Virus genome (UHGV): UHGV-1373008 | Length of the DNA: 45,385 nt | Direction: 5' to 3' (one strand) | DNA from: a virus | Shown: piece by piece, positions 21,777 to 33,811 of the stretch | How the letters are laid out: every line of letters starts with the position of its first letter | How positions within the stretch are numbered: position 1 is the stretch's first letter | The notes under the pieces: model-generated | What the model saw: only the letters and a program-made list of their open reading frames with translations | Told to the model about the DNA's origin: nothing | The model's database searches: none | Program-made: the position numbers and the translations under genes

Positions 21777-22018
21777 GGCGCCTAACTAACTGGCTTATCG
21801 GCATTTGGGCGTCATTCTGCTCGCTGATTCAGCTCTGGCCTGACGCTATGGTTCATGTATGGGCATTCATGCCGGAAGACTTAAAGTCTTCCATTCCACC
21901 GATTGCGGTCAAGGCGATCAGCTACAGCATCCTTATTGCCTCGCTGTTTGGAAAAATGCACGGCATGAAGAAAGAGATTAAGGCGCTGAAAAATGATTCT
22001 GCAAATCCTCAAGGCTAA
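21773..22018 (+). CDS. Putative holin (81 aa, two transmembrane segments, charged C-terminus)
   Basis: Two hydrophobic segments. Position within the lysis cassette. Confidence 0.45.
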   Translation: MRRLTNWLIGIWASFCSLIQLWPDAMVHVWAFMPEDLKSSIPPIAVKAISYSILIASLFGKMHGMKKEIKALKNDSANPQG

Positions 22019-22487
22019 CTGGAAAGTTGTTGCGGCCATTATCGGCGTAGCACTGCTGGCGCTGATTATCTACGGGAAGTGGGTCAATTACGGGAAGGAG
22101 AAATATAACTCTGGATATCTGGCCGCCGTAGAGGCACAGAAGGTCAAAGACAAAGAGGCAAGCGAACAACATGAGCAAGACAAAAAGACCATCGAGCAGG
22201 AAGCGCAAGGCCGCATTGATGCCGCGCGTGCTGATGCTTCCGCTGCTGCTGTTAAGTCTGGCAGGTTGCAGCAACAGCTCGCCACAATCAGAAAGCAGCT
22301 CCTCGATTATTCCAGAACTGAGTCCATTGGCAATCCAGCCGCCAGTACCGGAGTTTTGCTCTCCCAACTGCTCAGCGAATCTGTCGAAAGAAATCGACAA
22401 CTGGCAGAATATGCTGACTCAGCAAGAGAAGCAGGATTGACTTGTCAGGCGCAATATAACTCCCTGCGCAATAAAAAAGCCCCGTAA
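21993..22487 (+). CDS. Rz-like i-spanin
   Basis: N-terminal transmembrane segment plus periplasmic coiled coil; embeds the Rz1 frame. Confidence 0.65.
   Translation: MILQILKANWKVVAAIIGVALLALIIYGKWVNYGKEKYNSGYLAAVEAQKVKDKEASEQHEQDKKTIEQEAQGRIDAARADASAAAVKSGRLQQQLATIRKQLLDYSRTESIGNPAASTGVLLSQLLSESVERNRQLAEYADSAREAGLTCQAQYNSLRNKKAP
22219..22440 (+). CDS. Rz1-like o-spanin lipoprotein embedded in the +1 frame of Rz
   Basis: Lipobox LLSLAGC. Pro-rich mature region. RBS AAGG. Confidence 0.6.
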   Translation: MPRVLMLPLLLLSLAGCSNSSPQSESSSSIIPELSPLAIQPPVPEFCSPNCSANLSKEIDNWQNMLTQQEKQD

Positions 22488-22499
22488 AGGGGCTTTTCT
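22471..22499. terminator. Bidirectional terminator (AAGCCCC-GTAAA-GGGGCTT + TTTCTG, A-run upstream)
   Basis: Stem-loop flanked by an A-run and a T-run. Confidence 0.7.
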
Positions 22500-22500
22500 G

Positions 22501-22755
22501 TCAACCAATAACCATCCAGTCGCTAGCGATCATATCGGTTTGGCTTGCCAGCCATGGCACCAGTTTCCCATCAGCCGTTTTCATGCAGATAAAAGGTAGC
22601 GTATTAAGCCCGTCAATCCCATCAATATCGCACTCAAAGTCCCATGCCCCTCCTGCTATCATGAACAGGAACATACCCTTTCCATTCCACCCATTTCTTG
22701 CTACCTTGCATCCAATTCCCATCTCCTCCAGGGCCTCACCAAAGCTTAAAGACAT
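22501..22755 (-). CDS. DUF2829-family protein (same family as Thoeris anti-defence Tad2)
   Basis: Motifs GWNGKGMF and DGKLVPWLASQTDMIASDWMV match the DUF2829 signature. Confidence 0.55.
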   Translation of the reverse strand: MSLSFGEALEEMGIGCKVARNGWNGKGMFLFMIAGGAWDFECDIDGIDGLNTLPFICMKTADGKLVPWLASQTDMIASDWMVIG

Positions 22756-22764
22756 TTTTACACC

Positions 22765-22971
22765 TCATTCGTATAGTGGTTTCATTTCATAGCCAAACAT
22801 GGCCGCGTTTTGGTGCTCAACACTACCAGCAAACGCCAGATAACGACGTCCACGATTGCTGGTGATGATGTAGGCGATTGGCTCGCCAAGCCTTGGGGCA
22901 TGATAATCTCGCAGGGCTGGTTCGTGTAACTCTATCATGTCAATTTCAATGCGTGGTATTGGATGGTTCAT
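22765..22971 (-). CDS. Hypothetical protein (68 aa)
   Basis: ORF track. Confidence 0.45.
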   Translation of the reverse strand: MNHPIPRIEIDMIELHEPALRDYHAPRLGEPIAYIITSNRGRRYLAFAGSVEHQNAAMFGYEMKPLYE

Positions 22972-23234
22972 TATTTTACTTCCACATTCAGTTTAACCCA
23001 CCCCTTCCCGGGCACACTTTTGATTTTCCCGGCCTTGCGCAGTGCTTGCAGACGCCGGCCCAGAACTCGAAATCCTTCTCCTTTTTTTGTTGCGAAACTC
23101 TCGCACGTGGTAAATACCTTGCTATCAAAATCGCTGCGACCGCGTTCGTAGAAATGAATCTGATAGAATGGAATCGGAGTATCATTATCAATTTTATCCA
23201 AAATTAGCTTATCCAACTCGGCATACTTGCTCAT
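22971..23234 (-). CDS. Hypothetical protein (87 aa)
   Basis: ORF track; coupled. Confidence 0.45.
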   Translation of the reverse strand: MSKYAELDKLILDKIDNDTPIPFYQIHFYERGRSDFDSKVFTTCESFATKKGEGFRVLGRRLQALRKAGKIKSVPGKGWVKLNVEVK

Positions 23235-23701
23235 TTTGCATCCCCATTCAGTTCATTAACAATTAATGTTGCATAGCCAGCAATGTCCTTCCAGCTATCG
23301 TCATATGTCGGGTCGCCATTCAGGATTCGACCGATTTTATGCTGAATCATGTCGAGCGCTTCCTTCTGGCTCGCCGTCAGGTTGTTCCAACCATCAACGT
23401 CGCGCATGGTGTCTTTCAGTGACTGCATGATTTCTGCACCGTCTTTGAATTTGCCATAGCGGCTTCCGCGCTCGGTGATGAGGCGTCCTGTGGGGGATTC
23501 AAATGGCATCCATGGGTCGGGCTCCAGCTCACGATGAGCGATAATAATGTCGCCAACCTTTTCGATATCCTTATCCCGGCCTGCGTAATCCAAACCGAGA
23601 TGGTATACCCTGCCAGTTGATGCTGATTTCACAACAAGAATAGCGCCTGGATGGCCTTCAAAATCTGCTTCACTTCCTTTATGGTATTTGTATTTCATCA
23701 C
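23231..23701 (-). CDS. Hypothetical protein (156 aa)
   Basis: ORF track; ATGA overlap. Confidence 0.5.
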   Translation of the reverse strand: MMKYKYHKGSEADFEGHPGAILVVKSASTGRVYHLGLDYAGRDKDIEKVGDIIIAHRELEPDPWMPFESPTGRLITERGSRYGKFKDGAEIMQSLKDTMRDVDGWNNLTASQKEALDMIQHKIGRILNGDPTYDDSWKDIAGYATLIVNELNGDAK

Positions 23702-23898
23702 TCACCTCTCAACGTAACTTTGTTTTTCTCATCTACGCTGAAATGCTCGCGCACAAACGCATACATTTCTTCGGCGCTCCATTCCCGCATTGCTACATAG
23801 CAGTGCGCGTAATATCTGACATCTCGCAGGCTTAACGGTTGGCGCTTAGCGATAATCTCAGTCAATACTTCCAGTGGTTCTTTGCGTTGTCTCGCCAT
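23698..23898 (-). CDS. Hypothetical protein (66 aa)
   Basis: ORF track; RBS GGAGAG. Confidence 0.45.
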   Translation of the reverse strand: MARQRKEPLEVLTEIIAKRQPLSLRDVRYYAHCYVAMREWSAEEMYAFVREHFSVDEKNKVTLRGE

Positions 23899-23920
23899 TG
23901 TCGCTCTCCTGTGAAAATCA

Positions 23921-23976
23921 TCTTGACGAATCTACGTCAATTAGTCAATACTCTGTGTTGTAGATTGTACCATAAT
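23921..23976. promoter_or_regulatory. Divergent control region: palindrome TTGACGAATCTACGTCAA plus an inverted partial copy TTGTAGATTG and a -10 CATAAT
   Basis: Motifs at 23923-23940 and 23958-23967; CATAAT at 23971-23976. Confidence 0.5.
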
Positions 23977-23994
23977 GATAAAAGGTGGTGTGGA

Positions 23995-24210
23995 ATGAAG
24001 AAGTGGCAGGAGGTGACAGAGGTTCATAAGCGCGATTGCCGGGAGACTCTGCAAATGCTTAATGTGCCGGAGTCAATCATTAAATCTATCGAGCAGCGCA
24101 TTGACCTCGCTGCTATGGAGGCAGCCCATGAAGCCGAGGAAGCGCAAATGTTGTCATGGATGGACAGAACTCTACCGGGCGTTTTACATCGTGGTAAGAC
24201 TACCGATTGA
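23995..24210 (+). CDS. Hypothetical protein (72 aa)
   Basis: Internal ATG with RBS AGGTGG. Confidence 0.45.
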   Translation: MKKWQEVTEVHKRDCRETLQMLNVPESIIKSIEQRIDLAAMEAAHEAEEAQMLSWMDRTLPGVLHRGKTTD

Positions 24211-24293
24211 AGATGATGACGGGTATCTGCATAACCATAGTCAGGTACTCAAATATTATGGCGTTCACTATAAAGTGCTGATGGAGAGAAAAA

Positions 24294-24485
24294 ATGACTA
24301 CTGATCAGGTGTACGAAAAAGAGTTGCTGAACAAGCTGGAAGAACTCGACCGCACTCGCGCATGGGTTGAAAGCGAATTGCGCGAGGTTCGCAACCGCAT
24401 GCAACGGCAGGTTAACCGCGAAATTATCGAATGGCGCGAGGGGCGCCCGCATTTCAGCAATATTGGTGAATGGGTGGCGAAATGA
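24294..24485 (+). CDS. Hypothetical protein (63 aa, coiled coil)
   Basis: ORF track. Confidence 0.4.
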   Translation: MTTDQVYEKELLNKLEELDRTRAWVESELREVRNRMQRQVNREIIEWREGRPHFSNIGEWVAK

Positions 24486-24721
24486 AACCAATGATGAATG
24501 ATAATGGGCTGCTGGAGTGTCCATTTTGCAATGAAATTAGCGTTGGTGTTGCCACTGATGAAGATGGCTGGCAATACATTGAATGTAGTGATTGTTATTG
24601 CCGCACGGATGGTTTCAGAAATCCCAAACTCATGGTTGAAAGATGGAATACCCGCAACGGCCACCTCTACACCGCTGACGACTACAAACAAGATGCACTG
24701 GAGCGCGCAAATGGACTTTAA
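24482..24721 (+). CDS. Lar-family restriction-alleviation protein (zinc-binding)
   Basis: LLECPFCNE...IECSDCYC...ERWNTR matches the Lar_restr_allev signature (CPFCG ... WN.R). ATGA-coupled. Confidence 0.65.
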   Translation: MKPMMNDNGLLECPFCNEISVGVATDEDGWQYIECSDCYCRTDGFRNPKLMVERWNTRNGHLYTADDYKQDALERANGL

Positions 24722-25181
24722 AACGCAAATACTCACGGTGATAGAGCGCTGTGGTGGCGCAACCAATGCCATGATACGCAAGCAGACTGGCATGACAAAC
24801 CGAGCCAGCGTTACAGGCTATCTGATTGAGCTGGAGGGTATGGGATTTATTATTAAAGAGGAAAGCGTCAGCTATGGCAGGCGCTGCTTTAAGTATTTCC
24901 TCAATCCCGATAATACCGCGCTTGACATGGCAATTCAGACGTACCTTGAGGAGAATCCGGGACGCAAGAGCAAGCAGATAGCAGAGGCTGTCGGCGTCAA
25001 CTACACCATCCTGAAAGCGCGTATGCGCTATCTGGCGAGCATTGGTCAGGTTGACCGTGAAATGCTTCCCGGTGGCGCGTGGAAATATTACTGGCAGGAA
25101 ATCATCCCGTTTGGAATGAGTCGTGACAGGATGATGTTTGAAAAGCTGCTTGCCGCGGTGCGCCAGTCATGTGGGCGGTAA
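24711..25181 (+). CDS. Putative DNA-binding protein with two winged-helix (MarR-like) repeats
   Basis: Two repeats of the pattern ..I....GG.T...I.....G.T...V.GYL..LE..G.I. RBS GGAG. Confidence 0.45.
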   Translation: MDFKTQILTVIERCGGATNAMIRKQTGMTNRASVTGYLIELEGMGFIIKEESVSYGRRCFKYFLNPDNTALDMAIQTYLEENPGRKSKQIAEAVGVNYTILKARMRYLASIGQVDREMLPGGAWKYYWQEIIPFGMSRDRMMFEKLLAAVRQSCGR

Positions 25182-25444
25182 AGCATAAATCAGGAACCGT
25201 GCTGTTTATCACCAATTGTGAACGCACGGCCAATAATCGCAGAGAAATGGAGTGGATAGTGGAACAAAGAAAATGCAGAGTAACAATTGAGTGGTTAAAC
25301 GGAAAGAAAAGCACCTTCTTCGCTGATGGATGCGCGGAGATGGATAACAGCATCATGCTTTCAGTTAATGGTACTGATTTGCATATTCCATGGCAAAACA
25401 TGGTTGATGGCGAGATTAAGTATTTTGATGAGGGCGAGGAATGA
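25169..25444 (+). CDS. Hypothetical protein (91 aa)
   Basis: ORF track. Confidence 0.45.
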   Translation: MWAVKHKSGTVLFITNCERTANNRREMEWIVEQRKCRVTIEWLNGKKSTFFADGCAEMDNSIMLSVNGTDLHIPWQNMVDGEIKYFDEGEE

Positions 25445-25713
25445 CAAGTAGAGAGCAGTTTGAAAAATGGGTTGGTGATAGCGTAAATTCTGATGTGCAC
25501 AGGGGTATTATGCTTAGCCGCCATGAGAATGGAAATTATAGCCACCTTGCGACAAGACACAAATGGGATGCTTGGCAAGCATCGCGCGCGGCAATTGAGA
25601 TTGAACTGCCAGAACCATGCTCCCCTGGTGATTTCTGTGTAGACATTCCGGCACAAGCTCATCATGAGGTTGTCGAGGCAATAGAATTGGCTGGATTAAA
25701 GGTGAAAGTATGA
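25441..25713 (+). CDS. Hypothetical protein (90 aa)
   Basis: ORF track; ATGA-coupled. Confidence 0.45.
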   Translation: MTSREQFEKWVGDSVNSDVHRGIMLSRHENGNYSHLATRHKWDAWQASRAAIEIELPEPCSPGDFCVDIPAQAHHEVVEAIELAGLKVKV

Positions 25714-26054
25714 AACTACAACTTAACGAAATCATGGAAGCAACAATTAGCGAGCTGGATGACATTGATATGACGCTTGCCTTTGAGATTGAGGCTATCG
25801 AGCGTCAGCTTGCTGGCAATCAGAATGGAAATAAGGTATGGAGAGAGAAGGCCATGAAGGCAAAGGGACACATGCAGCGCACCCGCGCGCTGGTTCGCAC
25901 TCGCCTTGATAAGCTCTACTACGGCGAAGAAAGAATGTTGCACGGCGCCATTCTGGCTGAAATCCGAAAAACGATGCCTGTAGGGAAATTCATGGATGCC
26001 GTAAACCGCGCAAAAGTTAACTGCGGAATGTTAAATAAGAATAGTCCTCAATAA
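25710..26054 (+). CDS. Hypothetical protein (114 aa)
   Basis: ORF track; ATGA-coupled. Confidence 0.45.
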   Translation: MKLQLNEIMEATISELDDIDMTLAFEIEAIERQLAGNQNGNKVWREKAMKAKGHMQRTRALVRTRLDKLYYGEERMLHGAILAEIRKTMPVGKFMDAVNRAKVNCGMLNKNSPQ

Positions 26055-33653: not shown

Positions 33654-33730
33654 TGGTTACCGCGACAGGATTCGAACCTGTAATCATCCGATTATGAGTC
33701 GGGTGCTTTAACCAGTTAAGCTAAACGGGA
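33654..33730 (-). tRNA. tRNA-Met/Ile2-like (anticodon CAT) with an imperfect acceptor stem (5 of 7 pairs); possibly a degenerate or pseudo-tRNA
   Basis: D-arm GCTT/AAGC, anticodon loop CTCATAA, T-arm ACAGG-TTCGAAT-CCTGT, encoded CCA. The acceptor has C2/U71 and U7/C66 mismatches. Confidence 0.5.
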
Positions 33731-33733
33731 GTT

Positions 33734-33811
33734 TGGTGCACCATACTGGATTCGAACCAGTGACCTACGGATTAGAAGTCCGTTGCTACTATCCTGCTGA
33801 GCTAATGGTGC
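33734..33811 (-). tRNA. tRNA-Arg (anticodon TCT)
   Basis: Acceptor GCACCAT/ATGGTGC, anticodon stem ACGGA/TCCGT, loop CTTCTAA, T-arm ACTGG-TTCGAAT-CCAGT, CCA encoded. Closely parallels E. coli argU. Confidence 0.85.

Follow-up and report, generated by a model that had tools for sequence, protein, structure and literature searches.

The window, that is, the whole 45,385-nt stretch of DNA analysed here (UHGV virus genome UHGV-1373008), belongs to a Roufvirus-like siphovirus, a group that mostly infects Klebsiella and for which mosaicism is already known (PMC11769527). The nearest records are Flyfo siphovirus Tbat1_6, the Klebsiella phages XY3 and KP591P1, and Aeromonas phage pIS4-A. Five minus-strand ORFs, running from 23898 down to 22501, encode proteins of 66, 156, 87, 68, and 84 aa, and the junctions between them either overlap or are spaced by 9 nt. 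The five packed ORFs confirm the original prediction, in which the gene at 22501–22755 was described as the last of a five-gene minus-strand cassette (22501–23898). On the left side of this last gene, the plus strand carries the genes of an HNH endonuclease, an endolysin, a holin, and an Rz spanin, and, according to the annotation of the closest relatives, the terminase, the portal, and a MuF-like gene lie still further to the left, beyond the lysis genes. On the right side of the cassette, a 96-nt divergent region is followed by seven small plus-strand genes (23995–26054), beyond which lie the genes for head decoration and the capsid. The cassette had been placed between the lysis and head modules, which is a fair description but a simplified one, since the seven small genes precede the head genes. 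In the block diverging from the cassette, a Lar-like restriction alleviation gene (PF14354, 39 bits) is located at 24470–24721 on the plus strand; a gene for a MarR-family winged-helix regulator (phrog_1687) lies at 24711–25181 on the same strand.

The gene at 22501–22755 (minus strand) starts with ATG, stops with TGA, and encodes a stand-alone, minimal DUF2829 domain of 84 aa (MSLSFGEALEEMGIGCKVARNGWNGKGMFLFMIAGGAWDFECDIDGIDGLNTLPFICMKTADGKLVPWLASQTDMIASDWMVIG), identified as Tad2-like by Pfam family PF11195 and by matches in the PDB. The motif GWNGKGMF occupies residues 22–29 and the string DGKLVPWLASQTDMIASDWMV occupies residues 62–82; thus, the ORF and both of the strings originally quoted as its DUF2829 signature are present as described. 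The ATG is preceded, at a distance of 5 nt, by a Shine–Dalgarno sequence, GAGGTG (22761–22766, minus strand), which overlaps the stop codon of the preceding 68-aa gene. In comparison with four close homologs, the ratio of synonymous to nonsynonymous codon changes ranges from 7:1 to 13:1. The gene is real and, because 7–13 changes are synonymous for each nonsynonymous one, it is under purifying selection.

The other four genes of the cassette precede the Tad2-like gene on the minus strand. The first gene (23698–23898; 66 aa, phrog_14963) is conserved in the relatives. The second, promoter-proximal and conserved as well (23231–23701; 156 aa), encodes a protein with a C-terminal DUF6378-like helical domain, the match of which reaches 26.4 bits, just under the Pfam cut-off of 27.1. 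No PDB sequence matches this protein, and AlphaFold2 (AF2) modelled it poorly (pLDDT 58.5). The length of its N-terminal part differs from relative to relative, and one source names its homologs 'nucleotide modification associated domain 1'. The 87-aa gene (22971–23234; phrog_7185) is present in about 11 of 64 relatives. The C-terminal 39 aa of the 68-aa gene product (22765–22971) match phrog_34266, and this gene is found in about 50 of the 64 syntenic relatives, preceding Tad2 wherever Tad2 occurs. Scans of the cassette proteins with NCBIfam and PADLOC gave no match.

At the end of the cassette, a G+C-rich hairpin lies at 22475–22497 and folds well on both strands. It is composed of AAAAGCCCC-GTAAA-GGGGCUUUU, the right arm after AAAAGCCCC-GTAAA being also written GGGGCTTTT, with an A-run before and a T-run after it. 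Folding of the two strands was predicted to yield −15.4 and −17.7 kcal/mol, with z-scores of −3.5 and −2.7, respectively. The Rz stop codon (22485–22487) is situated in the hairpin loop, and the end of the hairpin is separated by 3 nt from the Tad2 stop codon. In addition, a 28-nt stretch over the hairpin is 100% identical in L007, a relative without Tad2. A simple terminator scan missed this hairpin, the extension of the stem having consumed the T-run. The hairpin is shaped like a bidirectional intrinsic terminator common to the convergent spanin gene and the cassette, and the bidirectional terminator previously proposed at 22471–22499 is borne out, as a predicted structure, by the folded hairpin and its flanking A- and T-runs.

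At the opposite end, the divergent intergenic region (23899–23994, both strands) bears the marks of a control region in its conservation and its inverted repeats. The plus strand contains TTGACG (23923–23928), an 18-nt spacer, and AATACT (23947–23952); the minus strand contains TTGACT (23948–23943), an 18-nt spacer, and AAGATG (23924–23919). Two nested inverted repeats exist in this region, TTGACG/CGTCAA at 23923–23940, with arms 6 nt apart, and AATCTAC/GTAGATT at 23929–23966, with arms 24 nt apart. At least 90% of the 42 distinct intergenic versions keep the −35-like boxes of TTGAC type on each of the two strands, and such blocks persist though the flanking proteins drop to 53% amino acid identity. 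The cores TCTAC and GTAGA are likewise conserved in at least 90% of the 42 versions. In a promoter scan, matches to the consensus promoter were no commoner in the intergenic region than in shuffled sequences; the −10 boxes are weak, and no convincing −10 box exists for the minus-strand promoter. A palindromic promoter node had been proposed at 23921–23976; it is confirmed in part, by the inverted repeats and the conserved −35-like boxes, but the scan shows no excess and the −10 boxes are weak. A divergent promoter/operator region with two face-to-face elements is plausible from the sequence, and the inverted repeats may constitute an operator; its regulator might be the MarR-like protein, the gene of which lies about 800 nt downstream.

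The absence of a DUF2829/Tad2 profile match was one of the outcomes named as contrary to the original prediction, and the Pfam search instead aligned the 84-aa protein over its full length with PF11195 (DUF2829, renamed "Tad2-like") at an E-value of 2.6e-24 and 86 bits, covering profile positions 2–73 of 73. The gathering score of PF11195 is 25 bits; with a profile score so far above the threshold, a chance resemblance to DUF2829 is excluded at the sequence level. In the PDB, a sequence search returned seven distinct sequences with an E-value of at most 1, all of them Tad2 or AcrIIA7 proteins and ranging from 4e-18 to 1.4e-15. The best of the seven is HgmTad2/AcrIIA7 (4e-18), and the others include Myroides odoratus Tad2 (2.5e-17), the 158-aa chain 9kzr deposited as AcrIIA7 (3.9e-16), SPO1 gp34.65 (1e-15), and SptTad2. 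The AF2 monomer model, built from an alignment of 64 homologs, has a mean pLDDT of 93.3 and a pTM of 0.81, and displays a helix (residues 5–13) followed by strands at residues 17–20, 29–33, 55–59, 65–67, and 80–83. Searching the PDB with this model by Foldseek gave 24 matches at an E-value of at most 1e-3, exclusively Tad2 structures, with TM scores of 0.71–0.79 and identities of 36–44%; the first match after these 24 has an E-value of 0.48. The 84-aa protein is a member of the Tad2 family by profile, fold, pocket residues, size, and phage origin. Membership in DUF2829/Tad2, as originally claimed, is thereby upheld, the profile, the PDB sequence matches, the predicted fold, and the residues contacting gcADPR all concurring.

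The ligand pocket was mapped with the SPO1 Tad2 sequence from the PDB and the residue lists of Yirmiya et al. (10.1101/2023.05.01.538930). Eight of the ten ligand- or water-coordinating residues of SPO1 Tad2 are identical in the 84-aa protein: W25, N26, T65, D67, W73, S76, T78, and D79 correspond to W23, N24, T60, D62, W68, S71, T73, and D74, respectively. The other two are substituted by the residues of HgmTad2, I63 by M58 and H71 by V66. Both the WNG motif (W23-N24-G25) and the W-x-x-S-x-T-D motif (W68, S71, T73, D74) are therefore present. HgmTad2 binds both gcADPR isomers, and mutation of its W21/N22 and S90/T92/D93 lowers gcADPR binding (Li et al., 10.1101/2023.11.15.567273); in the alignment, these residues are W23/N24 and S71/T73/D74 of the 84-aa protein. 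T82 of HgmTad2, which contacts the adenine, is K64 here. Across the 64 homologs, R20, G22, W23, N24, G25, K26, M28, M58, T60, P67, W68, S71, D74, and D79 are invariant. In helix α1, F5, G6, and A8 are conserved in at least 90% of the same alignment, which is compatible with a tetramer without proving it.

The 84-aa protein was compared with characterised Tad2 proteins. In the case of SPO1 Tad2 (gp34.65; PDB 8SME/8SMF/8SMG), an inhibitor of type I Thoeris that sequesters 1''-3' gcADPR, the two proteins belong to the same Pfam family, are of similar size (84 versus 89 aa), share a short β2–β3 loop, and agree in predicted fold (Foldseek TM 0.71–0.79, identity 40–44%). However, the loop is 3 aa shorter here and of another sequence, the AF2 model lacks the α2 helix, and the present phage has a Gram-negative host. 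HgmTad2/AcrIIA7 (PDB 8KBI–8KBM, 8WJC), a sponge for gcADPR plus cGG/cGAMP, has motifs nearly identical to GWNGKGMF and WLASQTDM, but its insertion between β2 and β5 comprises 41 aa (residues 32–72), in contrast to 21 aa (residues 34–54) in the present protein. The second pocket of HgmTad2, occupied by cGG or cGAMP, is formed by this 41-residue insertion together with R31, S47, F70, and N85; of these residues, R31 is replaced by I33 here, N85 falls in a deletion, and nothing corresponds to S47 and F70. Because the insertion domain and the cyclic-dinucleotide (CDN) contacts are missing, binding of cyclic dinucleotides in the manner of HgmTad2 would not be expected of the 84-aa protein, and a dual sponge of that type (gcADPR and CDN) was rejected on these features of the site. 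ModTad2 (PDB 9EIB/8V3E), a sponge for His-ADPR of type II Thoeris and cUMP of Pycsar, is the top Foldseek match (E-value 2.6e-8, TM 0.79) and aligns over the full length with 39–40% identity. Its pocket stretch reads WTPSVSD, whereas the present protein has WLASQTD, as in SPO1 Tad2 and HgmTad2. ModTad2 binds His-ADPR in the canonical pocket and cUMP in a second pocket, and does not block type I Thoeris.

On these grounds, we consider it likely that the protein acts as a sponge for an ADP-ribose signal made by TIR proteins, probably the 3'cADPR of type I Thoeris. We infer the oligomeric state, the ligand identity, an early expression, and the anti-Thoeris effect. Transcription of the operon would probably start at the conserved divergent promoter region (~23919–23952) and would end at the hairpin (22475–22497), with the Tad2-like gene last. 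In the family model, a homotetramer consists of two V-shaped dimers, with two symmetric pockets at the non-dimeric protomer interfaces; by analogy with the solved homologs, the 84-aa protein would assemble in the same homotetrameric form, and would trap, in its inter-protomer pockets, the ADP-ribose-derived second messenger that the TIR protein produces. With the signal sequestered, the Thoeris effector would stay inactive, and the infected cell would not abort the infection. Judged by the pocket residues, 1''-3' gcADPR (3'cADPR) is the most likely ligand, and it is likely rather than certain because the tested family members differ in the signal that they bind. The modest identity to the solved homologs (36–44%) and K64 in place of the adenine-contacting T82 of HgmTad2 also speak against this ligand.

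The main rival to this reading keeps the protein as a Tad2-family sponge but assigns it another immune signal as its main ligand, which would occupy either the canonical pocket or a second one formed at the other protomer interface. This signal could be His-ADPR (type II Thoeris), N7-cADPR (type IV), a cyclic mononucleotide (Pycsar), or an enterobacterial TIR product not yet described. We regard this as unlikely. The family is functionally diverse: the 18 tested homologs inhibit differing combinations of type I, II, and IV Thoeris, CBASS, and Pycsar, each of CBASS, Pycsar, and the three tested Thoeris types being inhibited by at least one of them (PMC12393519), and ModTad2, with its two pockets, provides a precedent. 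Furthermore, the characterised members are about equally distant from the 84-aa protein in the Foldseek alignments (36–44% identity), and its β2–β3 loop (residues 34–54; AGGAWDFECDIDGIDG), acidic and containing Cys, is the shortest among the Tad2 proteins compared and divergent in sequence. On the other hand, the WLASQTD stretch follows SPO1 Tad2 and HgmTad2 instead of ModTad2, the CDN site of HgmTad2 is missing, and only about 1% of Tad2 proteins are estimated to be without a functional gcADPR site (Li et al., 10.1101/2023.11.15.567273). A bolder version, which we hold to be improbable, is that the short Tad2 clade of enterobacterial phages has a ligand range unlike that of all characterised Tad2 proteins; this might involve a TIR-derived signal of Klebsiella or Enterobacteriaceae not yet described, or a second pocket at the dimer interface. 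If true, this would make the slot that follows the 68-aa gene a hotspot of counter-defence, and the occupants of families C9 and C21, together with the cassette families C4, C5, and C7, could be new anti-defence proteins.

It is very unlikely that the protein has a non-immune role, as a structural or regulatory accessory in which the DUF2829 fold is merely shared. DUF2829 does also form the C-terminal part of longer phage proteins, as seen in PHROG profiles of 172–262 positions that are matched at their C-terminal ends only. Nevertheless, the ligand-contacting residues are invariant across the homologs, which argues for retained ligand binding, and the sporadic distribution in a swap slot is typical of counter-defence, not of core functions. 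A Cas9-inhibiting anti-CRISPR role of the AcrIIA7 kind is hardly conceivable. As far as is known, the CRISPR systems of Klebsiella and its relatives are of type I and not of type II-A. The best PDB sequence match carries the deposition title 'Inhibitor of Type II CRISPR-Cas system'/AcrIIA7, and the homologs of Escherichia phages Louie and Huey bear the annotation 'anti-CRISPR protein', but this reading was dropped, since the anti-Cas9 activity was irreproducible in vitro and in vivo for AcrIIA7/HgmTad2 itself and for other Tad2 proteins, and AcrIIA7/HgmTad2 was shown to be a gcADPR/cGG sponge (Li et al., 10.1101/2023.11.15.567273), a view that Yirmiya et al. share. Tad2 and AcrIIA7 are treated as one family by AntiDefenseFinder (PMC11724313).

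Near-identical proteins are already in GenBank, labelled 'DUF2829' or 'hypothetical'. The DUF2829 proteins of Flyfo siphovirus Tbat1_6 (gp56), Acinetobacter phage vB_AbaM_AB4P2, and Klebsiella phage VLCpiS13c (gp17) are 99%, 92%, and 77% identical, respectively, and all three genes occupy the same slot, as the last minus-strand gene of the cassette adjoining the spanin gene. Tbat1_6 and VLCpiS13c, unlike AB4P2 and the window, possess an additional small plus-strand ORF between Rz and the hairpin. Most of the Tad2-bearing relatives carry about 150 nt more between the end of Rz and the hairpin, with an ORF of 47–51 aa (L001 4176–4331, L005 2786–2929, also L041, L046, and L057). Literature searches found no experimental work on this close clade, and gave nothing usable on a tested Tad2 of a Klebsiella phage or on the prevalence of Thoeris in Klebsiella. 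On a wider scale, 350 of 50,697 phage records contain a Tad2-like homolog, and homologs also make up more than 1,000 protein clusters. Species-representative bacterial genomes, when scanned, yielded more than 583 homologs from many phyla; among these matches, no bacterial homolog was closer than 71%, and no prophage source was identified.

The surroundings of the gene were compared in 79 IMG/VR loci, collected through the conserved 156-aa neighbour, together with six GenBank relatives and the window. The synteny of lysis genes and cassette is kept in 64 of these loci. In the cassette, the first two genes are constant, while the distal genes occur in 32 arrangements and are drawn from about ten small families (C4, C5, C7, C9, C21, C26, C28, C34, g87, and g68). 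The Tad2-like gene exists in 9 of the 64 loci, the window included, always directly after the 68-aa gene and adjoining the hairpin; in the other phages, its position is empty or taken by unrelated small genes (families C9 and C21) or by an HNH gene. The term accessory cassette used in the original prediction hence applies to the distal genes, Tad2 included, but not to the cassette itself, which is conserved in the phage group. When families C4, C5, C7, C9, C21, C26, C28, and C34 were scanned, none of the eight gave a credible Pfam match; C7 resembles a membrane protein. The families of the swap region are candidates for counter-defence or host-takeover genes.

In the nearest relative, IMGVR_UViG_3300045988_068642, the region 22783–24300 is 99.1% identical to the window, and the Tad2-like gene is absent. 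The identity breaks at 22497–22782, an interval that takes in the Tad2 ORF with its ribosome-binding site as well as the 3' end of the 68-aa gene, which is divergent. Conversely, in locus L041, the Tad2-like protein is 99% identical while the neighbouring proteins are only 53–67% identical to those of the window. Because such protein identity is found amid flanks so divergent, the comparison indicates that the Tad2-like gene moves between the phages of this group as a small, recently exchanged, and selected module. Meanwhile, the Lar-like gene on the other side of the divergent region is likely a second counter-defence gene near the Tad2-like gene, and its closeness suggests a counter-defence neighbourhood.

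The phage of the window and the approximately one in seven relatives that carry the gene are probably resistant to Thoeris-type signalling immunity, which bears on the choice or engineering of therapeutic phages against Klebsiella. The relative that has 99%-identical flanks and no Tad2-like gene offers a natural comparison for the contribution of the gene, and the variable end of the cassette offers a compact place in which to seek further counter-defence genes. The family, the fold, and the mechanism are already established, and Pfam or AntiDefenseFinder would label the gene automatically. The original reading is thus essentially right, and the result is a sound, routine Tad2 annotation and no new kind of system; the main remaining interest is in the ligand range of the short clade and in the nature of the genes that alternate in the slot.

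Several further features were observed in the surroundings of the cassette. The HNH endonuclease gene (PF13392; 20612–21340, plus strand) is situated directly 5' of the endolysin gene and has a GC content of 0.42, compared with 0.475 for the window. This position is vacant in relatives such as RCIP0071 and BUCT610, which suggests a mobile homing-endonuclease insertion. The Rz gene (21993–22487, plus strand) embeds, in another frame, an ORF at 22171–22440 (plus strand) with a lipobox-like LLSLAGC after an internal Met, and this ORF is expected to be the Rz1 outer-membrane spanin. In the syntenic loci L007, L011, L013, L017, L028–L031, L036, and L047, the same holin is present with no detectable Rz homolog, and an unrelated spanin gene has apparently taken its place beside the same hairpin. 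In addition, adjacent genes for tRNA-Met (CAT) and tRNA-Arg (TCT) are located at 33654–33811 on the minus strand, as they likewise are in Aeromonas phage pIS4-A.
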